Origin: Alphaproteobacteria bacterium
Lineage (GTDB): Bacteria > Pseudomonadota > Alphaproteobacteria > JAUHZY01
Length of the DNA stretch: 64,000 bases
Reading direction: 5' to 3'
Assembly: GCA_030425825.1 (NCBI GenBank)
Contig: JAUHZY010000001.1
Location: forward strand, 512,551 to 576,550
The position numbers and the translations under genes are program-made. Positions 2,810 to 61,223 of this stretch are shown one piece after another. Within the stretch, counting starts at the first letter, position 1. Each line of letters starts with the position of its first letter. Under the pieces are notes generated by a model. It worked only from the letters and a program-made list of their open reading frames with translations, made no database searches and was not told the origin of the DNA.

Positions 2810-2997
2810 TTTCCAGCCTTTGTTTTGTTGTGCATGTCTTGTTGCATAAATGTTTTAAATCTCTCTTCTTCTTTTTATTTTACACTCTTAATGCCTTCTA
2901 AAGCTAAATCTGGCACGCGCCGTGTATGTCCTTTTATGTAAAGTTTGTGCGCCCTTATTGGTAAACAGCTTCTGTTTAAAGAAGGACTATTTGTTTT

Positions 2998-21649: not shown

Positions 21650-21694
21650 TTAAACCTCGTCTAAAATAAATCAAAATATACCTTGTGTCTGTCA

Positions 21695-21710
21695 TGCATA
21701 TTTTGTGCCA
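21695..21710 (-). promoter_or_regulatory. sigma-54 type promoter (-24/-12) for fliC1
   Basis: Minus-strand sequence TTGGCACaaaatATGCA matches TGGCAC-N5-TTGCA, about 45 bp upstream of the fliC1 ATG. Confidence 0.45.
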
Positions 21711-21756
21711 AAGTTTCTTATGTGTTTTATGCGTTATCTTGTTTGGAAGAGGGCGC

Positions 21757-23238
21757 TTATGACCTGCCCCCAAACAAGATATCAATCAAGTTCTGTATTG
21801 ATCGGTTTGAGTTCGTCATTGAGAAAATGCTCAATTGCTCACGTGTCTCAAGAGCCAATCTATTCGCAGATTCTTCTTCTAAATCTGCCAGCGTCAGTTT
21901 ATCGCCTGCTTCTTCATGCGTGTTGATCAGATCTTCTGTGAACTCAAGGCGGGTTTGTAATAATGCAAAGTCTGTTGCAAAGCTGGCAGCAGTGCTGTCA
22001 ATCCTATTCAGGGCAGCGTCAAGTCCATCAAGTGTGGCGTCTAAACCTGCGGAAGAAAAATCAACACCCACAATCCCTAATGAGAAAGTTCGCATATCAA
22101 CAGAGTGAATTGTGTGTGTTGTGTTGTCACTAAAATCAACGATCAGATCTTCTGCATACTCACCTGCTGTCGGCGCATCTGTGTTGGCCCAGAAATCAGA
22201 TAAGTTTGCATTTTGAATCGTGCCATCATTTCCATTTCCTGAGCTGTCATATGCTGTCGTACCATTTCCTTCGTCTAATGGCCAATAACCTTCTAGGCTG
22301 GATCCTGGAATAGCGCCACTGGTGTAAAGTGTTGCGACTTCTGATGGTGTAAGCGCTTCATTCCAGAGGCCTGTATTGGACATAGACCCCTCAAAAAATG
22401 GCCCGCCTGGCTTCAAGGCACCAATTGTCATATCAACAGTGGGATTGTGCATTGATGTAATGGGGTCATCGTCGTTCATAACAACAGCAGCCTCTGCGCC
22501 ATCAACATACAATCTTAAGTCACCATTATCCCAAGTGAAGCCTACATGGTGCCAATTGCCGTCATTAATAGGAACGGTTGTCTCATAGTTCTTGCTTGTT
22601 CCATAAGTGCCATCACCACTAATCAAGACATTAAGCTCACCAGATGCTGTCAGGCCTAGATAAAATCCTCTTTGATTTCCACCTTGTTCATAATGGCCTG
22701 TCATATATGATGATGTGTCTGTTGTTTGTACCCAAGTAAAGTTTGATAAATCGGTTAAGCTATGGCCAATATCTCCAACGTTTATGTGATCATTTACTCC
22801 ATCAAATGTTGCGACAAAATCTTCTTCAACAAGTAAGTTTGTGCCGTTCATATGCGTATCAGCAATAAGGTTGTTATACTCACCCAGTAGTTTATTAGCT
22901 TGCGCTTCTAGGATGGTTCTCTGTGCTGCAGATGCATTGCGCGCTTCTTCAGCCAGACCCTTGACCTGCTCAATGATGGCGCGACCACTGGTCAGGCCAT
23001 GCTGCGTTGCTTTCAACGTACTGATCGCTTGATCAATATCGTCTTTGCGTTTCAGTAGGCTATCCGCCTTGTCATAAAGGCCCTTCGCTTTGAAGTACTC
23101 AACAGGACCGTCCAGAATGTCGTTGACCTTCTTACCTGTCGCCAGGCGCTTCTCAACAGTCGCTGTCAGATCCTTGATCTGTTGATGGTTCAACAAGCTG
23201 TTTCTCATCGCGGAAGTGAGCTTAATGTCATTGATCAT
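21757..23238 (-). CDS. fliC: flagellin with a LamG_3 module replacing the hypervariable domain
   Basis: Start MINDIKLTSAMRNSLLNHQQ preceded by a GGAGGTGGG RBS. The ORF-track start at 23292 lacks an RBS. Flagellin N and C termini (LTLADLEEESANRLALETREQLSI). The insert FDGVNDHINVGD...LYVDGAEA...LEGYWPLDEGNGTTAYDSSGNGNDGT is homologous to the first LamG module of the RTX protein. Confidence 0.8.
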   Translation of the reverse strand: MINDIKLTSAMRNSLLNHQQIKDLTATVEKRLATGKKVNDILDGPVEYFKAKGLYDKADSLLKRKDDIDQAISTLKATQHGLTSGRAIIEQVKGLAEEARNASAAQRTILEAQANKLLGEYNNLIADTHMNGTNLLVEEDFVATFDGVNDHINVGDIGHSLTDLSNFTWVQTTDTSSYMTGHYEQGGNQRGFYLGLTASGELNVLISGDGTYGTSKNYETTVPINDGNWHHVGFTWDNGDLRLYVDGAEAAVVMNDDDPITSMHNPTVDMTIGALKPGGPFFEGSMSNTGLWNEALTPSEVATLYTSGAIPGSSLEGYWPLDEGNGTTAYDSSGNGNDGTIQNANLSDFWANTDAPTAGEYAEDLIVDFSDNTTHTIHSVDMRTFSLGIVGVDFSSAGLDATLDGLDAALNRIDSTAASFATDFALLQTRLEFTEDLINTHEEAGDKLTLADLEEESANRLALETREQLSIFSMTNSNRSIQNLIDILFGGRS

Positions 23239-23470
23239 GACCCACCTCCATATGCTAGAGCAACATCTCGCGATGAGCTTATGATACGCCACGCGCTACG
23301 CGCTTCGGCTATGAGGGCGGAAGTGAGCTTAATGTCATTGATCATGACCCACCTCCATACGTTAGAGCAACATCTCGCGATGAGATGATGATACGCCACG
23401 CGCTACGCGCTTCGGCTATGAGGGCGGAAGTGAGTTTAATGTCATTGATCATGACCCACCTCCATATGTT
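23205..23470. repeat. tandem direct repeat of about 107 bp x3 (about 2.5 copies), spanning the fliC2 RBS, start codon and first 8 codons
   Basis: gcggaagtgagcttaatgtcattgatcatgacccacctccatatg...cgcttcggctatgagg recurs starting at 23211, 23318 and 23424 with a few substitutions. Confidence 0.85.
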
Positions 23471-47686: not shown

Positions 47687-48481
47687 ATGCAAAACATGAT
47701 TTTTGACATTCCAGGACAACCAAGATTAACAATCCCCAAAACAAATGGCCCTGCCATTCGCCAAGCTATGGAGGCACAGCGCAAAGCAATCCAAGCGCAG
47801 AATCAGTGGAATCACTCTGATGCAGCATATGAATTTATTAAAAGGCATGAGAAGTATCGCCCTTATCCATATTTGGATACGAGAGGAAATGTGACCATAG
47901 GTGTTGGGACGATGGTGCCTGATGAATCTGTGATGATAGATACGCCGCTTGTTGATTTGCTTGGCAACCCTGTATCAAGAAAACAGCGTGGACAAGTCTT
48001 TCGTGATATAAAGGCATTGTGGCAACAAGAGAAATATAGAAACTTACAAGCGGAATATTTCCCAAATCCACATAAGGTGACTTTACCTGAGTCAGAAGCC
48101 GATCGTATCGCAAGAAAGTATATAGAAGAGGAACTGCCTCACATTAAAAATAAATTCCAAGGATTTGATACTCTGCCTGATGCTGCAAAAACAGCTATTA
48201 TCGACATGCAGTATAACTTAGGAGATGCAGGATTTCAGCGGACGGTTCCTGAGGGATCGAACAAAACGCCGTGGCCAAATTTTTATAGTGCAATTGATGC
48301 GCGTGATTTTGAAACTGCTGCCCGTGAAGCAAGTCGTAAAGGCATTGGCCTTGGGAGGAATCAAGAAACCCAGCAATTATTGATTGACGCCGCCAAAGAA
48401 TGGCAGCAACAGCAATCACAAAAGCCTGTTGCGCCAACACCAGAAGCGCAAGAGAAAGGCGGACTGTTATCTTTTTTCTAG
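47687..48481 (+). CDS. GH24 (T4-type) lysozyme-like protein, copy 1 of 3
   Basis: FIKRHEKYRPYPYLDTRGNVTIGVGTMV matches the catalytic E...D...T...TIGxG motif of phage-type lysozymes. AAGGAG RBS. The start is set at MQNMIFDIPGQ. Confidence 0.7.
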   Translation: MQNMIFDIPGQPRLTIPKTNGPAIRQAMEAQRKAIQAQNQWNHSDAAYEFIKRHEKYRPYPYLDTRGNVTIGVGTMVPDESVMIDTPLVDLLGNPVSRKQRGQVFRDIKALWQQEKYRNLQAEYFPNPHKVTLPESEADRIARKYIEEELPHIKNKFQGFDTLPDAAKTAIIDMQYNLGDAGFQRTVPEGSNKTPWPNFYSAIDARDFETAAREASRKGIGLGRNQETQQLLIDAAKEWQQQQSQKPVAPTPEAQEKGGLLSFF

Positions 48482-48955
48482 AGGTTTATGGTGATACACT
48501 GAGAAGTGCCTGTCATAAGTCGGTTGATAATCATAGCGACTTTTAAGCCTTCTTAAAGCATCACCATAATATTTCCATGATCCAGTAGAGATTGAGACTC
48601 TTTCCCAAGGTTGGCGAAAGCTCGAGATTTCTAGTCGTTTAAGAAAGCCTTCTTTTACGCTGGGTGGCAAGTCAGTATAGTCAAAATCGTCTGGAAATAT
48701 TCTATAGCACTGCAAAACCAGAACTTTTTCACCATTGTGAATAAGGTAGGGACAATTCAGGTCGAAAACTTCATATTTATTTTCATAGGTGATTTTTGTT
48801 TGTGAGACTGTCATTTTGCCACCTGCTGCAGGGCTTGGATGCCACACGCCATAAAACTCTTTATTTTTAAAAGGTTCTGTTAAAGGCGGATCGGGTGTAT
48901 CTGCATAGATACCCAGTACAATTAAACCCACAAAGAACATCAGAAAATATTTCAT
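48467..48955 (-). CDS. secreted partner protein with signal peptide (candidate immunity protein or lysozyme inhibitor), copy 1
   Basis: MKYFLMFFVGLIVLGIYADTPDPPLTEPFKNKEFYGVW is conserved in all three copies. The 3' end overlaps the lysozyme gene by 15 bp, convergently. Confidence 0.6.
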   Translation of the reverse strand: MKYFLMFFVGLIVLGIYADTPDPPLTEPFKNKEFYGVWHPSPAAGGKMTVSQTKITYENKYEVFDLNCPYLIHNGEKVLVLQCYRIFPDDFDYTDLPPSVKEGFLKRLEISSFRQPWERVSISTGSWKYYGDALRRLKSRYDYQPTYDRHFSVYHHKPLEKR

Positions 48956-49024
48956 GGATCAAGTTTAACCACAGGTTGTGATGTGTGCAATCTGTTTGTT
49001 TTATTAACCAAGGAGAGATTTTAA
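48956..49024. promoter_or_regulatory. conserved divergent intergenic spacer (family A), copy 1
   Basis: accacaggttgtga..gcaatctgtttgttttattaaccaaggagagattttaa shared with 50243-50311 and 51548-51613. Confidence 0.6.
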
Positions 49025-49786
49025 ATGAAAAATATGATTTTCGATATTCCAGGACAGGCAAGGCGTGTTATTCCTTTGTCTGATAAGCAAGCTATTATAA
49101 ACGCACAAATTGCACATAGAGAGGCAATGGATCAACAGAAAGCACAGGGCAGCTGGAAATATTTGGACCAGGTATTTGATTTTATCAAAGAACATGAAGG
49201 AGGAATTGTTCCAGCTCCATATCTTGATACAACAGGAAATGTAACAGTTGGTATTGGTCACAGAGTGCCAAATGCGCAAGCTATGACCAAGTTGCCTTTA
49301 GTAAATCCATTAGGTCACGATGTATCTGATGAAGTAAAACGACAGGCTTTTGATGCTGTGTATGGATTGCGTGAAAAACAAGAATATCACAATAAAATTG
49401 CTAAAAAGTTTCCAAGCCCATACAAGGTTCGATTACCAGATTCAGAAGCAGTACGCATTGCCAAAGAGTATATCAACAATGAATGGCCTTTGGTTCAGCA
49501 CAAGTTTAATGGTTTTGATACATATCATCCTAAAGCACAAATGGCTGTGATGGATATTCAGTATAACATCGGGAATAAAAATTTTTCTCAAGAGAAATGG
49601 CTAAAATTTTATGATGCAATGGCACGGCGAGATTATGAGTCTGCGGCCGTAGAGTCTCATCGCAAGGATGTTGGTCAAAATCGGAATGAAGAGGTGCGAA
49701 AGCTATTGCTTGAAGCAGCAGAAGAAACACGTGCGCAAACAAAGTCGCCTTCGAATGATGTTGATTTACTTGGAGAATGGTTTTGA
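49025..49786 (+). CDS. GH24 lysozyme-like protein, copy 2
   Basis: FIKEHEGGIVPAPYLDTTGNVTVGIGHRV. The N-terminal 45 aa are identical to copy 3. Confidence 0.7.
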   Translation: MKNMIFDIPGQARRVIPLSDKQAIINAQIAHREAMDQQKAQGSWKYLDQVFDFIKEHEGGIVPAPYLDTTGNVTVGIGHRVPNAQAMTKLPLVNPLGHDVSDEVKRQAFDAVYGLREKQEYHNKIAKKFPSPYKVRLPDSEAVRIAKEYINNEWPLVQHKFNGFDTYHPKAQMAVMDIQYNIGNKNFSQEKWLKFYDAMARRDYESAAVESHRKDVGQNRNEEVRKLLLEAAEETRAQTKSPSNDVDLLGEWF

Positions 49787-50242
49787 TGTTGTTGAGGTTG
49801 GGCGATAGTAATATCCTTCAAAACATTTTGAGTAGAGCATGTCTGGTTGGTAGGAAATACCAAAGAAAGCACCCGCATATGTATCGCAATAGCTGACTGA
49901 AAGGCTAACACCTTTATCTAAGTATCGAGGTTTTTTGATTGCGAGGCGAATCAATTCATACTTTGTTTCGCCGTAAGGGTATTTGACGAGGCATTTCAAA
50001 ATAACGTCTTGTTTCCCGTTATACAAAAGATAGGGACATTCTTCATATGAATCGTTCTTTTCAAATGAGATGCCTGTCTGTGTGATGGTCATTTTCCCCG
50101 CGGCAAGAACAGACGTGCTGCTTGCTTCCCACACACCATAAAACTCTTTATTTTTAAAAGGTTCTGTCAAAGGTGGATCGGGAACATCTGCGTAGATGCC
50201 CAGCACAATAAGACCAACAAAAAACATCAGAAAATACTTCAT
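49766..50242 (-). CDS. secreted partner protein, copy 2
   Basis: Same signal peptide and N-terminal 40 aa as copies 1 and 3, with a diverged C-terminal part. 21-bp convergent overlap. Confidence 0.6.
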   Translation of the reverse strand: MKYFLMFFVGLIVLGIYADVPDPPLTEPFKNKEFYGVWEASSTSVLAAGKMTITQTGISFEKNDSYEECPYLLYNGKQDVILKCLVKYPYGETKYELIRLAIKKPRYLDKGVSLSVSYCDTYAGAFFGISYQPDMLYSKCFEGYYYRPTSTTSKPFSK

Positions 50243-50311
50243 GTAATCAGCATAACCACAGGTTGTGACTTGCGCAATCTGTTTGTTTTATTAACCAAGG
50301 AGAGATTTTAA
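50243..50311. promoter_or_regulatory. conserved divergent intergenic spacer (family A), copy 2
   Basis: taatcagcataaccacaggttgtgacttgcgcaatctgtttgttttattaaccaaggagagattttaa contains the palindrome TTGCGCAA. Confidence 0.6.
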
Positions 50312-51085
50312 ATGAAAAATATGATTTTCGATATTCCAGGACAGGCAAGGCGTGTTATTCCTTTGTCTGATAAGCAAGCTATTATAAACGCACAAATTGT
50401 ACATAGAGAGGCAATGGATCAACAGAAAGCACAGAAAAACTGGAAGCATTTAGACAATACGTTTGATTTTATTAAGATTCATGAGGGAGATATTTCACAA
50501 ACACCTTACCTTGATACGACAGGCAATGTAACAATCGGTATTGGACATAAAGTAACAGATGCCGAAGCGATGGTGAAACTGCCATTGGTTAATCCGCTGG
50601 GACATGATATTTCAGATGATATGAAGCGACAGGCTTATCATGAGATTTATGAATTGCGTAATAAGCCTGAGTATAAGAATCGTGTAAATGGTTCATTTCC
50701 TAATCCTTACAAAGTAAAATTACCAGATGCAGAAGCTGTCCGTATGGCAAAAGAATACATCAATAATGAGCTGCCTTTAGTTCAAGATAAGTTTAATGAT
50801 TTTGATACTCTTCATCCCAAGGCACAAACAGCGATTATGGATATTCAGTACAATATTGGAAATAAAAATTTTTCTAAAGAGAAGTGGCCAAAGTTTTATA
50901 CGGCAATAGATCAACGTGACTATGATACCGCAGCGGCAGAATCTCATCGTAAGGATGTTGGGATAGAGCGAAATAAAGAAGTAAAAAGGTTGCTGCTTGA
51001 GGCAGCAGAAGAAATAAAGGCGGGTGCGATCGCAGCACCAACTCAAAACAATAGCACTAGTGGATTACTTGGTGAATGGTTTTGA
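50312..51085 (+). CDS. GH24 lysozyme-like protein, copy 3
   Basis: FIKIHEGDISQTPYLDTTGNVTIGIGHKV. Confidence 0.7.
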   Translation: MKNMIFDIPGQARRVIPLSDKQAIINAQIVHREAMDQQKAQKNWKHLDNTFDFIKIHEGDISQTPYLDTTGNVTIGIGHKVTDAEAMVKLPLVNPLGHDISDDMKRQAYHEIYELRNKPEYKNRVNGSFPNPYKVKLPDAEAVRMAKEYINNELPLVQDKFNDFDTLHPKAQTAIMDIQYNIGNKNFSKEKWPKFYTAIDQRDYDTAAAESHRKDVGIERNKEVKRLLLEAAEEIKAGAIAAPTQNNSTSGLLGEWF

Positions 51086-51547
51086 AGGAGGGGATGACTC
51101 TTTGTAGTAATATCCGCCACCACAATTTGAATATTTCATATATGGTTGTGAGGTAATGCCAAAAAAAGCACCGCTATATGTTTCGCAAAACCTTACATGA
51201 AGCATAATATTTTCATTTGAGTATTTTGGCCTTTCGAGAGAAAGACGTATAAGCATCAATTCTTGTGGCGCAAAGCCATCAGGATAATATGTCTTACATT
51301 GAAGGACAATATCTTGTGAACCATTATACAAAAGATAAGGGCATTTTTCGTAGGAATTGTTCTTTTCAAACGAAATCTTCGTTTGCGCAATGGTTATTTT
51401 ACCTGCGGGTCGAACCGTATTACTTATAGGTCTCCACACGCCATAAAATTCTTTATTTTTAAAAGGCTCTGTCAAAGGTGGATCGGGAACATCTGCGTAG
51501 ATGCCCAGCACAATAAGACCAACAAAAAACATCAGAAAATACTTCAT
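51065..51547 (-). CDS. secreted partner protein, copy 3
   Basis: MKYFLMFFVGLIVLGIYADVPDPPLTEPFKNKEFYGVW. Confidence 0.6.
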   Translation of the reverse strand: MKYFLMFFVGLIVLGIYADVPDPPLTEPFKNKEFYGVWRPISNTVRPAGKITIAQTKISFEKNNSYEKCPYLLYNGSQDIVLQCKTYYPDGFAPQELMLIRLSLERPKYSNENIMLHVRFCETYSGAFFGITSQPYMKYSNCGGGYYYKESSPPSKPFTK

Positions 51548-51613
51548 GTAATCAGCATAACCACAGGTTGTGACTTGCGCAATCTGTTTATTTTATTAAC
51601 CAAGGAGGAAAAA
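51548..51613. promoter_or_regulatory. conserved divergent intergenic spacer (family A), copy 3, here driving the portal gene
   Basis: Near-identical to 50243-50311 up to the RBS (aaccaaggagg). Confidence 0.6.
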
Positions 51614-53605
51614 ATGTCTAAAAATGATATCCAAACAATTTTAAAGCAAGAAATTGATCAATCGCTGTCCTATATGGGCGGAGAATTGGCACATTCGCGT
51701 AAAAAGGCGATGGAATATTACCTAAGCAAACCATTTGGCAACGAGGTTGAAGGCCGCAGCCAGGTTGTGTCTAGCGATGTTGCTGATACAATTGAATGGA
51801 TCTTGCCATCACTGCTTAAGATCTTTACATCCAGCGACAAGGTTGTGCGCTTTGACCCTGTTGGCGCAGAAGATGAGGCCGTTGCTGATCAAGCCACAGA
51901 TTACGTTAACCATATCTTTCAGAAGGATAATCCTGGTTTTGTGATTTTGTATACGTGGTTCAAAGATGCTTTGCTGCAAAAAAACGGCTTTGTGAAGTAT
52001 TATTGGCAAAAGAAAAAAGATATTTCGAAAGAAACATTTAAAGCATTAAGTGAAGATGCGTATGCACTGTTGCTTGCCGAAGTAGAGGCCAATAGCGACC
52101 TCAAAATAAAATCAAGAAAAGCAAATAAAATTAAGGAGAAAGAAGATGAATCTAATTCAAAAGATAAAGAAAGTAAAAACATTTCTGCAACATACGATGT
52201 TGTGGTTGAGCGACATATTGAAAAGAGCCGTATCTGCGTTAAAAACGTTAGCCCAGAAGAGTTTCTTATACATCCTGACGCGAAAACGATAGATGATGCT
52301 GCTTTTGTCGCACATCGCTTGGAGCGTTCGATTTCTGACCTTATCGCATCTGGTTATGATCGTAAAACAGTTGAAGCCTTAAGTGACGATGATGGCTTAC
52401 ATTTCAATGAAGAGCGTCAAGCACGACGTTTGTTCGATGACACGCCCTTGCATGAACGCAGCGATAACACACGCAAAGTCCCTGTATATGAGTGCTATAT
52501 TCGCCTTGATGAAGATGGAGATGGTATAGCAGAGCTTCGCAAAGTCACAGTTGCAGGGGCTGAACTAGAGGTTTTAGATAACGAAGAAGTTGACTTTATT
52601 CCTTTTGCTAGCCTGTCACCTGTGTTGATTCCACATCAATTCTATGGCTTATCTATCGCAGATCTTGTGATGGACTTGCAGCTCATTAAATCTACTGTGA
52701 TGCGCCAAGTGATTGATAATATGTATCTGACAAACAATAACCGTCATGTTGTCGTAGATGGACAAGTGAATCTGGATGATTTGATGACTTCACGTCCAGG
52801 TGGTGTGGTGCGTGTGAAAAACCCTGCTGCCATTCAAGCACTAAATGCGCAAAGCATGCCTGAAAAAGCTTTTGGCTTGCTGCAATATATTGATGGTGTC
52901 CGCGAAGAACGCACAGGCGTTACCAAGAATATGCAGGGCATGGATACAAATACGCTGAACAAAACAGCGAGCGGAATAAACCAAATCATGACTGCTGCAC
53001 AGCAACGGATTGAACTGATTGCGCGTGTATTTGCAGAAACAGGCGTGAAGGATTTATTCTCGAACTTGTTAAAGCTGGTTGTTAAATACCAAGATCAACC
53101 CCGCATGATTCGTCTTCGTAATGAGTGGGTGCCGATGGATGGTTCACAGTTTGACCCTGATATGGATGTCAGCGTTTCAGTTGGTTTAGGCACAGGAAAC
53201 AAAGATCAATCTTTGGCACATTTACAGAATATTTTGAACATCCAAAAAGAAGCTATTTCTGTACAAGGAGGTGTTTTTGGACCACTTGTTACTTTGGATA
53301 ATATTCATAATACACTTGCAAAAATGGTTGAAAATGCAGGCTTGAAAAATGTTGCTGAGTTCTTCCAAAAACCTAATATGGAACAGCTTATGGCGCAAGA
53401 AAATCAAAAAGGTACGGCGCCAAATCCACAGGCACAAGCCATGCTTGAGCAATTGAGGCTGGCATCAGAGAAAATCCGCATTGATGGCATGAAAGCTGAG
53501 ACAGATCGCTTGAAGGCCGAAACTGATGCGGCAATCAAAGAGCGTGAAATTCGCTTGAAAGAAGAAGCCGCACGACAAAAAACAGAAGAAGCTTCTGATG
53601 TTTAA
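51614..53605 (+). CDS. phage portal protein
   Basis: 663 aa. The start MSKNDIQTILKQE follows an AAGGAGG RBS; the ORF-track start at 51383 runs back through the partner gene and spacer. Portal-like central region and a C-terminal coiled coil. Gene order terS-like, terL, ..., portal. Confidence 0.6.
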   Translation: MSKNDIQTILKQEIDQSLSYMGGELAHSRKKAMEYYLSKPFGNEVEGRSQVVSSDVADTIEWILPSLLKIFTSSDKVVRFDPVGAEDEAVADQATDYVNHIFQKDNPGFVILYTWFKDALLQKNGFVKYYWQKKKDISKETFKALSEDAYALLLAEVEANSDLKIKSRKANKIKEKEDESNSKDKESKNISATYDVVVERHIEKSRICVKNVSPEEFLIHPDAKTIDDAAFVAHRLERSISDLIASGYDRKTVEALSDDDGLHFNEERQARRLFDDTPLHERSDNTRKVPVYECYIRLDEDGDGIAELRKVTVAGAELEVLDNEEVDFIPFASLSPVLIPHQFYGLSIADLVMDLQLIKSTVMRQVIDNMYLTNNNRHVVVDGQVNLDDLMTSRPGGVVRVKNPAAIQALNAQSMPEKAFGLLQYIDGVREERTGVTKNMQGMDTNTLNKTASGINQIMTAAQQRIELIARVFAETGVKDLFSNLLKLVVKYQDQPRMIRLRNEWVPMDGSQFDPDMDVSVSVGLGTGNKDQSLAHLQNILNIQKEAISVQGGVFGPLVTLDNIHNTLAKMVENAGLKNVAEFFQKPNMEQLMAQENQKGTAPNPQAQAMLEQLRLASEKIRIDGMKAETDRLKAETDAAIKEREIRLKEEAARQKTEEASDV

Positions 53606-54364
53606 ACAACAAGGTGTTTTTGGCAGAACACTTGAAGTAAGAACAGGAGGTCATGCTTCTGTTTCGCCTCGTACAATGGAACGTCGTGTAACAGATCCAA
53701 GTCCTGCGCTTCAAGACTTTGCCACGAAGGAGGGCAGCCAAGAGGCTGTCCCTTCTCATGACATCACCTATGTCGAAGGCGGTGCGTTGAATGATTATCC
53801 ATCACCCTCTGTTGGTGAAGGACAAAGCAGCAGCAATAGATGGAATGACTACGCCCCAGATCCCTTCGGCTGGGACAGTTTACCGGGGTCAGAACACCTC
53901 CCTTCAAAGCGTGGCTGGACATTGCCATCAGGTAGGTCCATCACAGCGCCATTCCCAGGACAAGAAGAAAGCTATTTCCGTTGGAGTGAGAATAAAATGG
54001 CACAACATCAGCGAAATATTGATGCATTAGATGCTGCCTATACTGTGTTCATGGAGGGAGAGGCACGCCAGCATGCTTCGGAACAACGAGATACAATGAG
54101 ACGCCAAGCTTTATACAACATCAATAACGGTATGGGGGCTGTGACGGCGGGTATGATATGGCACAACAAAGAAGAGAAGCAGGCCAGGTGAGTTTTTCTA
54201 GAACGACGCGTGATGTTATCAAAAGCCAAGCTTCCATGTTTGGTGCTAATAAAATACTTGGTGATTACGCAAATCCTGTGATCCAAAATTTGGGAGAGGA
54301 TATCATCAAAGACAGAATCAATCAGATAGGAGATTATCTGAGGAATCTAGGCCCAATTTACTAG
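53598..54364 (+). pseudogene. glycine-zipper toxin-like gene, deletion/frameshift derivative (two ORF fragments, 53598-54191 and 54158-54364)
   Basis: The N-terminal part matches the 56260 and 58047 proteins (TYVEGGA...WNDY.PDPFGWDSLPGSEHLPSKRGWTLPSGRSITAPFPGQEESYFRWSENK) up to GMGAVTAGMI. The C-terminal match (SQASMFGANKILG...INQIGDYLRNL) then continues in the +1 frame. The glycine-zipper segment is missing. Confidence 0.55.
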
Positions 54365-55195
54365 CTAATAAGTTTGGTCAATTTTTTGGAAAAACACTTG
54401 AATTGGCATACCTGGACGCCAGTTTCCAGCTAAACTCTTGATCTTTTCTTTCTGCTTTAAGGAAAGTCGCTGACGAGATTTTTCACGAAGAGACAAGACT
54501 TCCTTATCATTCAAAACAGACTCTTTATATTTAGGAAAAAACAAATGAGGATACAGGTCTCTTAAAAGATCGCTTTTTTGCTTATATGCTATGTCTGCAA
54601 TATCAAGAAGAAATTGTACTTTGAGTGGTTTGTGAAGACTTTTGTACTCTTTTTCATCCATAATAAAAGCGATCAGAAAGATACCGTTTAAATCGCCTTC
54701 ATCGGCGGCTTGCACAAAGTATTTTAAAGCATCTTGTGGTGTTTCACTTTCATATAAAAAGAATAGCCCAAGGTCAATCAAAGCACCGCCATCCTTTTTC
54801 TCTGCTGCCTTCTGTGTCCATTTCCATGCTTGTTTTGGGTCTTGCTTGACGGCAATGCCTTCGCTGTAAAAACGACTTATCTTATTCATGGCTTCTGGAT
54901 CACCTGATCTTGCGGCTTCTTGATATAGTGCGAAAGCCTTGGCAGGATTCTTTGCAACGCCCAAGCCATGTTCCCAAATAAGACCCTCTAATGTCTGAAA
55001 ACGTGGATGATCAGCAGAAGATGCCAGTACAAGCACCTGGTCATATTGTTTGTTATCAAAAGCAGTGAGTGCATTATCCCACAGCTGTTGGTCAATGGGC
55101 TGATCATAAGGGCTTGATTGATGAGAGGTATAAAACACACCTGCCGCAACAAGACATAAAACAAAAACAAAGGGGAAGAGAAGTTTCTTTTTCAT
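54365..55195 (-). CDS. Sel1-repeat protein with signal peptide, copy 1
   Basis: MKKKLLFPFVFVLCLVAAGV signal. Sel1-like repeats LEGLIWEHGLGVAKNPAKAFALYQEAARSGDPEAMNKISRFYSEGIAVKQDPKQAWKWTQKAAE. Confidence 0.7.
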   Translation of the reverse strand: MKKKLLFPFVFVLCLVAAGVFYTSHQSSPYDQPIDQQLWDNALTAFDNKQYDQVLVLASSADHPRFQTLEGLIWEHGLGVAKNPAKAFALYQEAARSGDPEAMNKISRFYSEGIAVKQDPKQAWKWTQKAAEKKDGGALIDLGLFFLYESETPQDALKYFVQAADEGDLNGIFLIAFIMDEKEYKSLHKPLKVQFLLDIADIAYKQKSDLLRDLYPHLFFPKYKESVLNDKEVLSLREKSRQRLSLKQKEKIKSLAGNWRPGMPIQVFFQKIDQTY

Positions 55196-55259
55196 AAAGC
55201 AACTTTAACAACCAGCAATTGAAAAAACTATCTTTTATTTTACCAATGGAGACCACCTA
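55196..55259. promoter_or_regulatory. conserved divergent intergenic spacer (family B), copy 1
   Basis: ataaagcaactttaacaaccag.aattgaaaaaactatcttttatttta recurs at 56200, 57987 and 59727. Confidence 0.6.
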
Positions 55260-55400
55260 TGTCGAAGGCGTTGTGGTACAAAGCAGCATCACTTCCTTTT
55301 ACAAGCATATCGCCAGCTATTGGGACGACGGCAAGCCATATTATACGACCTGCTGTCAAACAAGGAGTTGATGAGATATATAATTATTTTGACTATTAGT
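55255..55400 (+). pseudogene. decayed 5' fragment of a toxin-like gene
   Basis: METTYVEGVVVQSS... matches the N-terminus NDETTYVEGGAVQSS of the 56260 and 58047 genes, then degenerates and stops. Confidence 0.4.
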
Positions 55401-55401
55401 C

Positions 55402-56199
55402 TTATTGGATGGCGGCTGGGATTCTTATAAATGTTCCAGGACGCCATCTTTGAGCTTTATATCTTAAATCGGCAAGCTCTTTATCATTTAGATATTTGGG
55501 CAGGCTCTTTTCCAGCATTTTATAGTTTTTGTTTCTTCTTTCTTTATAAGGCGCAGGAAAAAAATACGAGCGGTCTGGTCCAAATCCAGATACATCTGTA
55601 AAGGCATTATTTACCTTGAGAATGTAGTATAAATAGGCACTGCGTTTGTAATCTTGAGATTCAAATGCATCGATGGCCTCTTCAAGTAGCATTGTCGAGT
55701 TGCCTGAATAAGCAGATCTTTGACGATAGTTATTGTATTTTTCACTTCTTTTGGGAACTGTTAATGTTAAATAAAAGTACTTGTCTGCGAAGGATAAAGT
55801 TTTTGATTTCTCAAGCCAATGGATAAGCTGGGTATCTGAAAGAAGAGGGGTGTTATCAAGCATATAAGCGATAACAATAAAAAGCGCATTTTCATCGCCT
55901 TCATCGGCACTCTTTTTTAAATTCTCGATATTTTGGCCTGTTAAATCATGCGTTTTTTTTATCCATTTCTGCATTTCAATACTGTCAGGTGAAATGTTTT
56001 TGTGCTTTAAATATCCAACGACTTTCCAGGCAGCATAAACATCCCCTGATTGCGCCTGCTCTTTAAGTTGTTTCAAGTTTTTTTGGTAAGAGTACCATGG
56101 AAGAATATGGCTAAAGGTCACAAAGAAAACAATGCAAAGAATAATGCCGCGCAATCTTACTCTGGTTGGGGGTTGAAGTGGGTTCTGATATTTTTTCAT
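55402..56199 (-). CDS. Sel1/TPR-like repeat protein, divergent family member
   Basis: N-terminal TM/signal. Helical repeat composition. The C-terminal RWRPGTFI resembles the NWRPG and DWRIG tails of the other copies. Confidence 0.55.
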   Translation of the reverse strand: MKKYQNPLQPPTRVRLRGIILCIVFFVTFSHILPWYSYQKNLKQLKEQAQSGDVYAAWKVVGYLKHKNISPDSIEMQKWIKKTHDLTGQNIENLKKSADEGDENALFIVIAYMLDNTPLLSDTQLIHWLEKSKTLSFADKYFYLTLTVPKRSEKYNNYRQRSAYSGNSTMLLEEAIDAFESQDYKRSAYLYYILKVNNAFTDVSGFGPDRSYFFPAPYKERRNKNYKMLEKSLPKYLNDKELADLRYKAQRWRPGTFIRIPAAIQ

Positions 56200-56259: not shown

Positions 56260-57147
56260 ATGAACAATGACGAGACCACCTATGTCGAAGGCGGCGCGGT
56301 ACAAAGCAGCAACAATAGCTGGAACGACTATGACCCAGATCCTTTCGGCTGGGACAGTCTGCCAGGGTCAGAACATTTACCCTCAAAGCGTGGCTGGACA
56401 TTGCCGTCAGGTAGGTCCATCACAGCACCATTCCCAGGCCAAGAAGAAAGCTATTTCCGTTGGAGTGAGAATAAGATGGCACAACATCAGCGAAATATTG
56501 ATGCATTAGATGCTGCCTATACTGTGTTCATGGAGGGAAGTCATACACAAATAGATCGTGTCAGAAGCTTACAAGGCTCATATCCACCTGCCCATATTAA
56601 CGCACCTCTTTTTGGGAAGATGCGTCAATATGTTCCGCAACAACCCAGGACTTTAACGCCAGAACAGCAAAGTGCAATGAGACGCCAAGCTTTATACAAC
56701 ATCAATAACGGTATGAGTGCTGTGACGGCGGGTATGATTGGGATGAGTCGTGGTGCGTCTTTGGGTGTTCCTGGCATGGTCGCGGGTGGATTGTTTGGGG
56801 CTTTTAACGGTTATCAGGCGAGTCATGCAATTCAAAACAATCCCATAAATGCTTTAGATTTGGCAAGTCGATACGTCCCAATAGGAAAGGCGGTTGATAT
56901 AGGAAAAGATCTAAGTATTAGTGCTTTTAATCAATATCGCGAAAATGGTCATATAGATGCGTCTCAAGTTTTACGAGATACGGCTGTCAATCAAACTGTG
57001 GGAAGGGGAGTCAAAAGTATTCTGGGAGATAATTTGTCGCCAATTTCTGCGCTTGGAACAGAGAATATTTTGGGAGACCGTATCAATCGTGGTCTTAAAA
57101 AAATAGATGAGTATCTTTACCAAAAAGGGTATATCACTGGATATTAG
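56260..57147 (+). CDS. glycine-zipper membrane toxin-like protein, copy A (295 aa)
   Basis: AAGGAGG RBS. W/P-rich N-terminal domain. Glycine zipper GMSAVTAGMIGMSRGASLGVPGMVAGGLFGAFNG. Variable C-terminus. Confidence 0.6.
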   Translation: MNNDETTYVEGGAVQSSNNSWNDYDPDPFGWDSLPGSEHLPSKRGWTLPSGRSITAPFPGQEESYFRWSENKMAQHQRNIDALDAAYTVFMEGSHTQIDRVRSLQGSYPPAHINAPLFGKMRQYVPQQPRTLTPEQQSAMRRQALYNINNGMSAVTAGMIGMSRGASLGVPGMVAGGLFGAFNGYQASHAIQNNPINALDLASRYVPIGKAVDIGKDLSISAFNQYRENGHIDASQVLRDTAVNQTVGRGVKSILGDNLSPISALGTENILGDRINRGLKKIDEYLYQKGYITGY

Positions 57148-57986
57148 TATTGAAGGTTCATTGCCTTAAACTCTTTTTCAAACCCTGAGCCAATCTTCCA
57201 GTTTTCGGCGAGACGTTTTATTTGTTCTTTTTGTTGAGTTGTAAGCTTTTTGTCTAACTCTTTTTTTAATTGATGCAATTCAGGAAATGAGCTTGAAGAG
57301 AATCCTTTTTCAATATTAAAAAACAAATCTGGATAACGTTCACGCAGCAGAAAAACGCCTCTTTTTCCTTGAACAGAATCACTTAAATGAAGAAAAAAGA
57401 AGCGAACCAAATCAATTTGTGGATAGTCTTGGAAAGCACCATAATAAAATGCTAAAGCCCCGAAAGCAGCGGCACTTCCCATTTGCGCAGCTGCGGATAT
57501 TTTTTTATTTGCGTAAACAAGATGATCTTCACGTTCTTTATTTTTTATATGGTAATAGCCTATCATAAAAAGCGCGGAATAATCCTTTTTCTCTGCTGCC
57601 TTCTGTGTCCATTTCCATGCTTGTTTTGGGTCTTGTTTGACGGCAATGCCTTCGCTGTAAAAACGACTTATCTTATTCATGGCTTCTGGATCACCTGCCT
57701 TTGCGGCTTCGTGATATAATGTGAAAGCCTTGGCAGGATTCTTTGCAACGCCCAGGCCATGCTCCCAAATAAGACCCTCTAATGTCTGAAAACGTGGATG
57801 ATCAGCAGAAGATGCCAGCACAAGCACCTGGTCATATTGTTTGTTATCAAAAGCAGTGAGTGCATTATCCCACAGCTGTTGGTCAATGGGCTGATCATAA
57901 GGGGTTGATTGATGAGAGGTATAAAACACACCTGCCGCAACAAGGCATAAAACAAAAACAAAGGGGAAGAGACGTTTCTTTTTCAT
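57144..57986 (-). CDS. Sel1-repeat protein with signal peptide, copy 3
   Basis: The N-terminal 150 aa are near-identical to copy 1 and the C-terminus is diverged. 4-bp convergent overlap with the toxin gene. Confidence 0.7.
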   Translation of the reverse strand: MKKKRLFPFVFVLCLVAAGVFYTSHQSTPYDQPIDQQLWDNALTAFDNKQYDQVLVLASSADHPRFQTLEGLIWEHGLGVAKNPAKAFTLYHEAAKAGDPEAMNKISRFYSEGIAVKQDPKQAWKWTQKAAEKKDYSALFMIGYYHIKNKEREDHLVYANKKISAAAQMGSAAAFGALAFYYGAFQDYPQIDLVRFFFLHLSDSVQGKRGVFLLRERYPDLFFNIEKGFSSSSFPELHQLKKELDKKLTTQQKEQIKRLAENWKIGSGFEKEFKAMNLQY

Positions 57987-58046: not shown

Positions 58047-58871
58047 ATGAACAATGACGAGACCACCTATGTTGAGGGCGGCGCGGTACAAAGCAGCAAC
58101 AATAGCTGGAACGACTATGATCCAGATCCTTTTGGTTGGGACAATTTACCGGGTTCAGAATACCTGCCTTCAAAGCGCGGCATGTCATTGCCATCGGGCC
58201 GGTCAATCACGGCACCATTTCCTGGACAAGAAGAAAGTTATTTTAAATGGTCAGAGAGCAAGATAGCTGAACATCAACACAATATTGAAGCGTTGGACTC
58301 TGCTTACTCAGGCTTTGTTGAAGGCGTACAAAGTCTAGTACCGCAGTCACAGACCCTAACACCACAACAACAGAGATTGATACGTCAGCAAGCCATGTAC
58401 AATATCAATAATGGTATGGGGGCGGTGACAGGTGCGATGTTTGGCGCTAGTCGTGGTGCTCCGCTGGGGGTGCCTGGCATGGTTGCTGGCGGATTACTTG
58501 GTGCAGGGGCAGGGTATTTACAAACTCAACATATCCAGCAAAATATACCAGAAATCATGCAAGATGTGCAGCAGCCAGAGAATATTGCAGGAGCCGCCAT
58601 ATCATTATTGCCGCAAGCAAGAGGGACCGCACATATTTCTCGAGCAGCTTGGGATGCGGCAGCTAGTTTTTCTCGTCAGAAGAGAGAAAACAATTTAAGT
58701 TTCACAAAAACTGCAAGGAATATTATTGAGGGACAAGCATCAATGTTTGGCGTCAACAAAATTCTTGGTGGCGCTGCTAATCCTGTAGTTCAAAACTTTG
58801 GAGAAGCTGCAATCAGGGAAAGGATAAATCAGATCGGAGAATATCTAAGAGTCTTAAAATCAAGATATTGA
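58047..58871 (+). CDS. glycine-zipper membrane toxin-like protein, copy B (274 aa)
   Basis: GMGAVTGAMFGASRGAPLGVPGMVAGGLLGAGAGY. The N-terminal 90 aa are conserved with copy A. Confidence 0.6.
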   Translation: MNNDETTYVEGGAVQSSNNSWNDYDPDPFGWDNLPGSEYLPSKRGMSLPSGRSITAPFPGQEESYFKWSESKIAEHQHNIEALDSAYSGFVEGVQSLVPQSQTLTPQQQRLIRQQAMYNINNGMGAVTGAMFGASRGAPLGVPGMVAGGLLGAGAGYLQTQHIQQNIPEIMQDVQQPENIAGAAISLLPQARGTAHISRAAWDAAASFSRQKRENNLSFTKTARNIIEGQASMFGVNKILGGAANPVVQNFGEAAIRERINQIGEYLRVLKSRY

Positions 58872-58874
58872 TTT

Positions 58875-59726
58875 TTAGTTCAAATAATCAGTTGAAACGC
58901 CCATCGCTTTAAACTCTTTTTCAAACCCAGTGCCAATACGCCAATCCTGAGCCAGTTTTTTTGCTAGCTTTTTTTGCTCAGGCGTTGTTTTTTGAGAGAG
59001 TTCTTTTAGAAAGATCGCTAACCGAGGATCTTTCTTTTCGTCTTGCACAAAAGTTTTGAGAAAAAGATGTGGATAGCGCTCACGCAAAAGATTTTTGCCT
59101 CTTTTGTCTTTAACTAAGTCGTTTAAATTAAGAAAAAACTGAGAAAGCACAAAGTGATTAGGGAAGTCCTCAAACTGTCCCATTAAAATTGAAAGCATTT
59201 TAAAAGATTCATCACTACCATAATTTGCCGCTGCACTAAAATTTTTCAAAGAATAGTGTAAATTATCTTGAATTTGATCATTGTAAATAAAAATTAAGGC
59301 ATATTCTGTTAAAGCAAAATAATCATTTTTTTCTGCTGCGCGTTGCACCCACATCCATGCTTTTTCTTTGTCTTGTTGCACGTGCGTGCCGTCATGATAA
59401 AAACGACTTATTTTATTCATGGCTTCTGGATCACCTTTTTTTGCGGCTTTGTGATAAAGGGTGAAAGCTTTGCTAAGGTCTTTTTCAACACCAAGACCAT
59501 GCTCCCACATCAGACCTTCTAATGTCTTAAAGCGAGGATGTTTGGTGGATGTAGTAAGGCCACGTACTGTCGCGTATTGCTTTTGGTCAAAGGCGTGTAA
59601 AGCAGCGCTCCATGCCTGTTGGTCAATAGGTGCATCGTAACGTTTTGATTCATAATCAATATAGGCCCATCGAGCGGCCAAAGTAGACAGTAAAATAACA
59701 AGACTGAGAAGCAGTTTCTTTTTCAT
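58875..59726 (-). CDS. Sel1-repeat protein with signal peptide, copy 4
   Basis: LEGLMWEHGLGVEKDLSKAFTLYHKAAKKGDPEAMNKISRFYHDGTHVQQDKEKAWMWVQRAAEK. Confidence 0.7.
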   Translation of the reverse strand: MKKKLLLSLVILLSTLAARWAYIDYESKRYDAPIDQQAWSAALHAFDQKQYATVRGLTTSTKHPRFKTLEGLMWEHGLGVEKDLSKAFTLYHKAAKKGDPEAMNKISRFYHDGTHVQQDKEKAWMWVQRAAEKNDYFALTEYALIFIYNDQIQDNLHYSLKNFSAAANYGSDESFKMLSILMGQFEDFPNHFVLSQFFLNLNDLVKDKRGKNLLRERYPHLFLKTFVQDEKKDPRLAIFLKELSQKTTPEQKKLAKKLAQDWRIGTGFEKEFKAMGVSTDYLN

Positions 59727-59795
59727 AAAGCAACTTTAACAACCTGCAATTGAAAAAACTATCTTTATTTTAAGGAGAACAAGAAGGCGATTTAC
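59727..59795. promoter_or_regulatory. conserved intergenic spacer (family B), copy 4, followed by a degenerate gene start
   Basis: ataaagcaactttaacaacctgcaattgaaaaaactatctttattttaaggagaac, with no intact downstream toxin ORF. Confidence 0.5.
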
Positions 59796-59894: not shown

Positions 59895-60362
59895 ATGAAG
59901 AAAAAAGCTTTTATTCCTGAGAATATTGATTGGATTGTTTGGCGCGGTATGTTCTGGGAGACATTGCGCAATGCGATTATCTTTTTTACTTGGGGTGCGG
60001 CCAATGTTGTAATGGACGACCCGGAACAACATTTTTACATTCCATTTGCCTATGTGTTCTTTGCGCATTGCTTTTATTTGACGCATCGCATTTGTTACGC
60101 CACGCATACACGTTTTGATAAATATGCGGAAGCTTTTTTTAAAACAAAATCAGAATACAAATACAAGCTTGCTGTCAAAACATTTTCTCAGCGCTTGCGC
60201 CTGTTTTTATCTTTTTTATCGCGTGCTTTGGTGCGGCTTTCTTTGCTTGTGCTCTTTCTGCCAATGATGGTTGGTCTTATTAATATTCTTACGCCATACA
60301 GGTGGTTGCCTTATGATTACAAGCTGTGGTTTTATCAATACTTTATTTTATGGTGGGCATAA
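59895..60362 (+). CDS. hypothetical membrane protein (155 aa)
   Basis: Several hydrophobic helices (IIFFTWGAANVV, LSLLVLFLPMMVGLINIL). Confidence 0.4.
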   Translation: MKKKAFIPENIDWIVWRGMFWETLRNAIIFFTWGAANVVMDDPEQHFYIPFAYVFFAHCFYLTHRICYATHTRFDKYAEAFFKTKSEYKYKLAVKTFSQRLRLFLSFLSRALVRLSLLVLFLPMMVGLINILTPYRWLPYDYKLWFYQYFILWWA

Positions 60363-60956: not shown

Positions 60957-61223
60957 ATGCAAGAAGCTGTTTTGTATGAAGAAATATCACGTGGTCAAAC
61001 TGCAAAAGACTTACTGAATAATAAATTATTAAAAGATGCATTGGAAGCTGTAGAGGCCGCCGCGTTAGAAGAATGGAAAGAAACAGATAAAGATGCTTTC
61101 TCACAGCGTGAACGCATGTGGCAAAAGCTGCAAGTTATTGAAGAGTTCCGCCAGGACCTCACGCGCCATATTGAAACAGGCGCATTGGCAAAAGCACAAA
61201 TGAAAAGAAAAAAACGCTCATAA
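60957..61223 (+). CDS. hypothetical protein (88 aa)
   Basis: GAGGAGG RBS and ORF. Confidence 0.4.
   Translation: MQEAVLYEEISRGQTAKDLLNNKLLKDALEAVEAAALEEWKETDKDAFSQRERMWQKLQVIEEFRQDLTRHIETGALAKAQMKRKKRS

Follow-up and report, generated by a model that had tools for sequence, protein, structure and literature searches.

A split, probably inactivated copy of a toxin-like gene immediately behind an SU10-type phage portal gene in an alphaproteobacterial genome

The MuF polymorphic toxins of temperate phages are encoded adjacent to the portal gene and combine a conserved N-terminus with a polymorphic toxic C-terminus and a neighboring, putatively protective gene; portal or terminase genes in prophage remnants can likewise have MuF toxin genes nearby (Jamet et al., 2017, PMC5576092). 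Here we analyze an array of toxin-like genes with a related layout in 64,000 nucleotides (nt) of DNA from an alphaproteobacterium (assembly GCA_030425825.1, contig JAUHZY010000001.1, positions 512,551 to 576,550; this whole stretch is called the window, and coordinates are counted from its first nucleotide). The subject is copy 1, the first gene of the array, which starts within the end of a phage portal gene and is divided between two open reading frames (ORF1 and ORF2). It is compared with the intact copies 2 and 3 further downstream and with P0009 and P0132, two homologs from outside this genome. As with MuF toxins, copy 1 and P0009 lie immediately downstream of a portal gene, and the family has a conserved N-terminal part, variable C-terminal modules and an adjacent partner gene. 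Unlike MuF toxins, the family contains no MuF domain (PF04233 or PF06152) at E≤0.01, and its conserved part is ∼85 amino acids (aa) long and largely non-globular in appearance. The partner is a convergent 265–283-aa Sel1 or Sel1-like protein with a hydrophobic N-terminus rather than a small co-directional ORF, and the module is tandemly amplified away from the portal. The family may therefore work in the manner of a MuF toxin while lacking the MuF domain and co-directional immunity gene of a member.

Toxin loci of the contact-dependent inhibition (CDI), Rhs and Maf types provide a second comparison. They likewise have conserved N-termini, variable C-termini and tandem arrays, their neighboring genes co-vary with the C-termini, and they contain truncated or displaced toxin fragments with retained immunity genes, a pattern that copy 1 and a further remnant in the array (remnant X) fit. 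Orphan immunity genes beside degenerate toxins are an expected feature of polymorphic toxin loci. The family described here differs in having no recognized trafficking or toxin domain, no identified secretion system, and a convergent gene pair. The Tli5 proteins (PA5086–5088) are periplasm-directed Sel1-repeat immunity proteins of type VI secretion system (T6SS) phospholipase effectors and occur in multiple tandem copies; by analogy, the Sel1 partners may be immunity proteins, but this locus has no T6SS context or phospholipase effector. The membrane-active effectors TelE (PMC10434224) and Tde1 (PMC10240207) have glycine zippers that are reported to be necessary for toxicity or translocation. 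The GxxxGxxxG...GxxxGxxxGxxxG of copies 2 and 3 resembles these proteins at the motif level only, whereas copy 1 has no zipper motif.

ORF1 matches the N-terminal 130–160 residues of copies 2 and 3 in tblastn searches and alignments, and beyond ...GMGAVTAGMI it runs through 12 unrelated codons to a TGA at 54189–54191. The homologous C-terminus (SQASMFGANKILG...INQIGDYLRNL) is encoded by ORF2, which has 58% amino acid identity to copy 3 and 42% to copy 2. An earlier reading of the letters alone (the sequence-only reading) had called for alignment with copies 2 and 3, and this alignment revealed a deletion with its junction at 54157|54158. Relative to copy 3, the missing block corresponds to 58442–58667, a length of 226 nt or 75 codons plus 1 nt (3n+1), and encodes the 76 residues FGASRGAPLGVPGMVAGGLLGAGAGY...WDAAAS (beginning FGASRG). 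The deletion, and a length that is not a multiple of 3, are thus as that reading, with its estimate of about 70 codons, had proposed. Two further details were revised. The C-terminal sequence had been placed in the +1 frame, but ORF2 is in fact in the −1/+2 frame, offset from ORF1 by 2 nt ((54158−53598) mod 3 = 2). The deletion had been described as removing exactly the putative membrane-inserting segment, but it takes the GxxxG zipper together with ∼50 more residues. A GxxxGxxxG glycine zipper within a hydrophobic segment was not found in copy 1, where maximal hydropathy is 0.44 (ORF1) and 0.27 (ORF2), as compared with Kyte-Doolittle values of 1.08 and 1.33 for the zipper windows of copies 2 and 3. 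No segment of notable hydropathy is left in either ORF.

The sequences on the two sides of the junction have different histories. The 66 nt directly 5′ of it (54092–54157) are 95% identical to copy 2, with a synonymous divergence (dS) of ∼0.04, and the similarity to copy 2 ends abruptly at 54157. On the 3′ side, copy 1 matches the C-terminal module alone, with ∼72% nucleotide identity to copy 3. Synonymous sites in this module are saturated (proportions of synonymous and non-synonymous differences, pS 0.83 and pN 0.24), indicating that it diverged from copy 3 anciently. The abrupt end of a copy 2-like tract against an old C-terminal module fits a recent gene conversion or recombination event with copy 2 that was illegitimately resolved and created the 3n+1 gap.

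Copy 1 also differs from its paralogs in expression signals. A near-identical 52-nt element, AAAGCAACTTTAACAACCAG[T/C]AATTGAAAAAACTATCTTTTATTTTA, which holds the promoter-like match TTAACA-18-TATCTT, lies 5′ of copy 2, copy 3 and remnant X and at a fifth site; copy 1 is without it. No toxin-like ORF lies behind the element at the fifth site, where the next ORF (59895–60362) encodes an unrelated hydrophobic 155-aa protein. Promoter and terminator scans gave no more matches than in shuffled sequence, and Rfam and tRNA scans of the window gave none. Copy 1 has the properties of a putative pseudogene or split gene: its frame is disrupted relative to intact paralogs, and it lacks their start and 52-nt element. 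Taken together, we conclude that copy 1 probably belongs to a toxin/immunity-like cassette array, inserted between the portal gene and an 88-aa gene that is the portal's usual neighbor, and has recently been split and inactivated. One of the two outcomes offered by the sequence-only reading, a detoxified remnant, is the best-supported description and one that we hold with moderate confidence, its toxicity being putative. The loss of the zipper, the split into two frames, the missing paralog start and promoter-like element, and parallel decay elsewhere all point to a remnant, and the toxin nature of the family is suggested by its architecture.

The gene upstream of copy 1, identified by the sequence-only reading as a portal gene, is confirmed as such by its Pfam SU10_portal match (E=4e-224), which spans profile positions 2–591 of 593; the product is 38–44% identical to podovirus portals (Pelagibacter phage HTVC106P and Pseudomonas phage tf). 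The overlap noted in that reading is also present. The copy 1 ATG (53598–53600) and the portal TAA (53603–53605) are on the same strand within ATGTTTAA at 53598–53605, placing the start 8 nt inside the portal ORF. The signal for initiation there is weak, however. The predicted ribosome binding site (RBS) has an energy of −1.1 kcal/mol, versus −12.1 for copies 2 and 3 and −11.4 for the portal gene. The first ∼20 codons lack a convincing homolog and may have stayed open by chance (p=0.17–0.35); the first in-frame ATG may therefore overlap the portal stop only incidentally. The proposed translational-coupling geometry is thus present, with a weak start signal and plausibly chance-open first codons. 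At the position where the paralogs start, copy 1 has kept AAGGAGG (from ∼53727), with no in-frame start codon after it. A GGAGG-TC-ATG at 53646–53655, in which the GGAGG is strong, has a spacer of 2 nt between RBS and start, 3 nt shorter than at the homolog on contig L010, and might conceivably be a dead ancestral start site. In other loci, the gene downstream of the portal follows a 69-nt gap and has its own RBS (contig L010) or overlaps the portal by 11 nt but is non-homologous (locus L071).

ORF1 begins 50 residues ahead of the paralog start position (MNNDE/MSNDE) and 53 residues ahead of the shared HDITYVE motif. This motif has the form (H/D)I(T/S)(P)Y(V/I)E in copy 1, P0009 and P0132, and the latter two carry 154–180 residues before the core. 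In an alignment anchored on the motif, copy 1 residues ∼21–51 are collinear with P0009 residues 126–154. The anchored-shuffle p values for the extension were 0.004 and 0.001 against P0009 (two runs) and 0.032 against P0132, and the other two frames of the extension DNA scored far lower. The extension did not align significantly with residues 1–60 of P0009 (p=0.8), nor with L010 in a local alignment of nucleotides (p=0.13). Its GC content of 50% is like that of coding sequence, whereas the intergenic DNA 5′ of copies 2 and 3 has 30%, and the Met with which the paralogs start is aligned to an internal Met of P0009 (..QQEAM-DHISPYIE). The P0009 alignment, the coding-like GC content and the aligned internal Met suggest that the N-terminus was shortened in the duplicates and that part of the copy 1 extension is a vestige of ancestral coding sequence. 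The extension is 50 residues long, as first described, but is not wholly unique to copy 1, given the resemblance of residues ∼21–51 to the pre-core regions of P0009 and P0132.

The position of copy 1, on which the sequence-only reading did not remark, is also ancestral. Contig L010 is syntenic with the window, encoding in order a 711-aa protein (55–70% identical to its window counterpart), a sigma-like protein (59%), a terminase (73–86%), a portal (74–90%) and then P0009, which begins 69 nt after the portal stop behind its own AAGGAGG RBS. The gene preceding P0132 encodes a phage virion structural protein (phrog_3287, E=1e-103). P0009 and P0132 are each followed by a convergent gene whose C-terminal ..QKExIxxLxxxW[KR]PG.. 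is common with the window's Sel1 partners, and the outgroup pairs on L075 and L071 overlap at their 3′ ends by 18–20 nt. Since P0009 is portal-adjacent in a syntenic contig and both outside homologs have a convergent partner, the gene pair and its position behind the portal are ancestral, with copy 1 occupying that position. The L010 gene is itself split: P0009 (408 aa) and the next 87-aa ORF (within L010 10001–11453) jointly correspond to the 467-aa P0132. The L010 portal, terminase and 711-aa homolog are likewise fragmented, and this fragmentation probably reflects insertion/deletion (indel) error in a contig of 2x coverage.

These observations are best explained by the following history. 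Copy 1 would descend, by position, from the first member of a two-gene module restricted to this lineage, in which a protein with the ∼85-aa core and a variable C-terminal half was paired with a convergent Sel1 partner directly behind the SU10-type portal gene of a decayed prophage. The module would then have been tandemly amplified, with the duplicates acquiring their own 52-nt promoter-like element, a strong RBS and an internal start codon. Copy 1 would never have had these signals and would have kept only part of an ancestral N-terminus that was once longer, in a frame that happens to reach an ATG overlapping the portal stop. A later 226-nt (3n+1) deletion, probably during or after gene conversion with copy 2 ending exactly at the junction, would have removed the glycine zipper and linker and split the gene into ORF1, with the N-terminal core only, and ORF2, with the 68-aa C-terminal module in the −1 frame. 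Any membrane-active function of copies 2 and 3 has most likely been lost from copy 1 as a result, leaving the Sel1 partner as an orphan.

Table 1. Coordinates of the features discussed, in order along the window
Feature	Position	Strand	Remarks
Large terminase gene of decayed phage module	39339–40715	+	Pfam Terminase_6N; 73–86% identity to L010, 75% to large terminase (TerL) of prophage L070
687-aa protein gene	42667–44730	−	N-terminal GH108 lysozyme domain (E=1e-20), rest without match; within terminase-portal gap
Three convergent gene pairs	47543–51547		Lysozyme/pesticin-like (+) and ∼160-aa small protein (−); 3′ ends overlap by 15–21 nt
SU10-type phage portal gene, intact	51611–53605	+	Product P0012 (663 aa); Pfam PF23899 SU10_portal, E=4e-224
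Copy 1 5′ extension	53598–53756	+	53 codons before HDITYVE; residues ∼21–51 like pre-core region of P0009 and P0132
Copy 1 ORF1 (197 aa, P0003)	53598–54191	+	Extension, conserved N-terminal core, first 8 zipper-region residues, 12-codon out-of-frame tail
GGAGG-TC-ATG	53646–53655	+	+1 frame of ORF1; heads a 12-codon ORF; resembles L010 homolog start AAGGAGGAACTCATGCT
Deletion junction	54157–54158	+	Upstream like copy 2, downstream like C-terminal module of copy 3
Copy 1 ORF2 (68 aa, P0010)	54158–54364	+	−1/+2 frame relative to ORF1; own ATG at junction
Sel1-repeat partner of copy 1 (276 aa)	54365–55195	−	Convergent; hydrophobic N-terminus; Pfam Sel1 E=1e-17
Remnant X of further toxin-like gene	55196–55290	+	52-nt element and ∼15 codons (ETTYVEG..VQSS)
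Divergent partner-like gene of remnant X (265 aa), intact	55402–56199	−	C-terminal W[KR]PG motif
Copy 2, intact (295 aa, P0002)	56260–57147	+	Glycine zipper
Sel1 partner of copy 2 (280 aa)	57144–57986	−
Copy 3, intact (274 aa, P0001)	58047–58871	+	Glycine zipper GASRGAPLGVPGMVAGGLLGAGAG
Sel1 partner of copy 3 (283 aa)	58875–59726	−
Fifth 52-nt element, with AAGGAG	59727–59778	+	Directly after copy 3 partner
88-aa homolog of small gene normally right behind SU10-type portals	60957–61223	+	Homologs include prophage L070 of the same genome

The cassettes in the array are organized alike (Table 1). The 3′ ends of the toxin-like gene and its partner abut in copies 1–3, ranging from a 4-nt overlap to a 3-nt gap, so that the variable C-terminal halves of the two genes adjoin each other and the conserved flanks are outside; the Sel1 partners, too, have conserved N-terminal and variable C-terminal halves. 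Three partners match PF08238 above the gathering score (E=1e-17, 3e-13 and 7e-16) and also match Sel1 proteins in the PDB (E=1e-29), whereas no Pfam Sel1 match was obtained for the partner-like product of 55402–56199. The copy 1 partner is intact; its residues 1–135 are almost the same as in the copy 2 partner (dS 0.087, non-synonymous divergence (dN) 0.019), but the C-terminal half differs. The C-terminal module of copy 1 is like that of copy 3, yet the C-terminal half of its partner is not clearly like that of the copy 3 partner. In remnant X, a fourth toxin-like unit in the window, the RBS and start are lost and the rest of the toxin-like gene is unrecognizable. Remnant X and, on the favored reading, copy 1 have thus lost a toxin-like gene and kept its partner, which is the pattern expected for orphan immunity genes.

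Relatives of the family were sought with a word-indexed search of 5.8 billion proteins and an exhaustive profile search of 1.84 billion representatives, followed by a second profile that included the first outside match. The 1.66-Mb genome that contains the window has at least six paralogs (P0001–P0004, P0011, P0010, and a second split paralog elsewhere in the genome, represented by the pair P0007 (76 aa) and P0008 (207 aa)). Only P0009 and P0132, both from one ENA metagenome, were found outside it. Scans of GTDB species genomes with the family profile returned no relative, so that this collection does not include the present genome, and scans of JGI metagenome and IMG/VR contigs returned no match. 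A hidden Markov model of the family likewise had no match at E<1 among six-frame ORFs of 68 portal-gene loci (9 from GTDB, 59 metagenomic), indicating that ordinary SU10-type phages do not carry this gene. All members have in common a core of ∼85 aa, Y-DPDP[FL]G...LPSGRS...GQE[EK]SY, which in the module here reads Y-DPDPFGW...LPSGRS...GQEESY, and diverge strongly downstream of it; alignments of the paralogs accordingly show a conserved N-terminal region joined to hypervariable C-terminal modules. P0004, P0009 and P0132 have no obvious glycine zipper. No match to the family was found in Pfam, PHROGs or the PDB, where the profile search returned noise, and no toxin domain was recognized; at E≤0.01, Pfam had no match for P0001–4, P0009, P0011 or P0132, and the Bacteriocin_IIc and TraT matches are sub-threshold. 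An AlphaFold2 model of copy 3 built from 9 sequences was unusable (mean predicted local distance difference test score, pLDDT, 36.7).

Several observations weigh against the conclusion that copy 1 is an inactivated toxin-like gene. The toxin/immunity role is suggested by gene architecture and is unproven, given the lack of a Pfam, PHROG or PDB match and of a usable fold model. Over 240 nt of the N-terminal domain, copies 1 and 2 are separated by 13 synonymous changes but 5 non-synonymous ones (dS 0.33, dN 0.027, dN/dS ∼0.08), whereas ∼26 non-synonymous changes would be expected for the copy 1 half of the divergence under neutrality, as calculated from the N-domain site counts. This deficit implies that the copy 1 N-terminal domain was constrained for most of its history, and, having been mostly under purifying selection, it may still encode a functional truncated protein. 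ORF2 has a moderate RBS (−6.1 kcal/mol) ahead of the ATG at the junction, and its 68 uninterrupted codons are open in only 0.6% of composition shuffles, as would be expected if the lesion were recent or some function remained. Public annotation lists ORF1 and ORF2 as separate proteins (P0003 and P0010). Finally, one added base anywhere in 54128–54189 would fuse the two frames. The anatomy of the locus, its homologies and synteny and the lack of frameshift signals are established, whereas we infer the recency of the loss, the loss of function and the toxin/immunity role. The competing explanations are considered below.

The alternative with the best standing, although a doubtful one, is that the family is not a toxin/immunity system at all, but consists of phage virion or ejection proteins or host-interaction effectors. 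The Sel1 proteins would then act as chaperones or be unrelated cargo, and copy 1 would be a broken structural or effector gene. The outgroup members lie directly after a portal gene and after the virion structural gene, no known toxin domain was found, and the zipper-window hydropathy is just 1.1–1.3. Numerous paralogs within one genome with a conserved N-terminus and hypervariable C-termini are less easily reconciled with such roles, as are the accompanying variation of the partner C-terminal halves and the retention of orphaned partners. Analogous pairs of a cargo gene (+) and a Sel1 gene (−), including one with an HExxH protein, are present in related prophages, and the three lysozyme-like/secreted-protein pairs upstream in the window have the same convergent layout; both also argue against it.

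An explanation that we regard as unlikely is that ORF1 encodes a functional truncated N-domain protein, coupled to the portal gene and retaining an ancestral phage-related role such as portal or capsid association or trafficking, with ORF2 separate or dispensable; copy 1 would then have shed a domain rather than decayed. The strong purifying signature of the N-terminal domain is as predicted by this explanation, as are the stop/start overlap with the portal gene and the still open ORF2. The N-terminal core is moreover the sole part conserved in P0009 and P0132, beside a portal gene and a virion structural gene, respectively. The selection signal predates the junction, however, because the adjoining conversion tract has a dS of 0.04. 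The weak RBS and plausibly chance-open first ∼20 codons also speak against translation from the portal overlap, and the remnant X unit and the P0007/P0008 pair are plainly decaying.

It is less probable still that the frameshift is an assembly or sequencing indel and that the real gene is a single ORF with an in-frame deletion of ∼75–76 codons, joining a zipper-less N-terminal core to the C-terminal module. In addition to the ease with which one base would restore the frame, a second family member (P0007/P0008) is also split, and the two-frame overlap (54128–54191, 64 nt) contains a run of five Gs at 54134–54138. This run is the sole homopolymer in the overlap, which has no long A or T run, and correction of an error there, like slippage in it, would shift the conserved AVTAGMI into another frame; the junction itself is free of homopolymers. 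The intact long ORFs of the window (portal, terminase and the 806-, 855- and 1009-aa proteins) show that indel errors are infrequent there, and the ∼226-nt loss is real either way. The second outcome offered by the sequence-only reading, a programmed-frameshift variant in which −1 frameshifting joins ORF1 to ORF2 as a zipper-less isoform, is very improbable: although the 64-nt overlap is open in both frames, ORF1 has no X_XXY_YYZ heptamer, the overlap has no A/T run, and no homolog shares the split arrangement, the intact paralogs encoding this region in one frame.

The favored reading, a decayed first cassette in an array, is set within a decayed phage module. The 88-aa gene at 60957–61223 indicates that the array (53.6–60.9 kb, 7 kb in length) was inserted between the portal gene and the gene that usually follows it. 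No scaffold or major-capsid homolog was found in the window. The terminase and portal genes are separated by 11 kb, as compared with 1.3 kb in L010, and are intact although no capsid or tail genes are nearby; they could be a long-retained, possibly domesticated remnant of packaging genes. The same genome contains an intact-looking prophage, L070, whose portal is 53% and large terminase 75% identical to those of the window, and the portals most similar to that of the window are labeled as alphaproteobacterial. Two of the three small proteins in the lysozyme-like pairs have near-identical hydrophobic, signal-like N-termini, and these pairs look like peptidoglycan-hydrolase effector/immunity cassettes.

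Related arrangements are present in other loci. In the prophage L072 (10348–13066), a 420-aa cargo protein with a HEAVH (HExxH) metallopeptidase-like motif is paired with a convergent secreted Sel1-like protein (471 aa), and this pair is inserted between the portal and 92-aa genes and the scaffold and major capsid protein (SU10_MCP) genes. In L071 (731–5129; from the Alphaproteobacteria metagenome-assembled genome (MAG) GCA_054385355.1), the stop of a portal gene with 52% product identity is overlapped over 11 nt by a gene for a 265-aa protein with a P/S/A-rich N-terminus, followed by a convergent secreted 260-aa protein, a weak Sel1 protein and then housekeeping genes. There are no recognizable phage genes downstream of this portal, and the contig ends 730 nt upstream. 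The 265-aa protein was evaluated as a possible family member, but hhalign comparison with the family found no homology. Elsewhere in the window (389–4488 and 20189–23292) are genes for an RTX-repeat protein, FlgE and two flagellin paralogs, pointing to a flagellated host.

A more speculative proposal, to which we assign only a small chance, is that the N-terminal core is a phage-derived targeting module, a MuF analog unrelated in sequence, that links variable toxic C-termini to the portal or capsid. The long-retained terminase-portal-88-aa remnant would in that case have been domesticated to deliver or release a growing set of toxin/Sel1-immunity and lysozyme/immunity cassettes, and copy 1, with the N-terminal core only and coupled to the portal, would be a still functional adaptor or decoy.

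As a broken gene, copy 1 is an ordinary case of decay by deletion, and its interest lies in the portal-born, nearly genome-specific toxin-like family and the Sel1 partners to which it belongs. Copy 1 marks the ancestral locus of an uncharacterized family that resembles a polymorphic toxin/immunity system and is present here in stages from intact to nearly erased. If the toxin/immunity role is correct, the family would represent a second case, unrelated in sequence to MuF, of polymorphic toxins born beside phage portal genes, with convergent Sel1-repeat proteins as their cognate partners. The recurrence of cargo(+)/Sel1(−) cassettes in SU10-type prophages, several of them alphaproteobacterial, and in a lone-portal MAG locus suggests a broader, undescribed class of phage moron cassettes.

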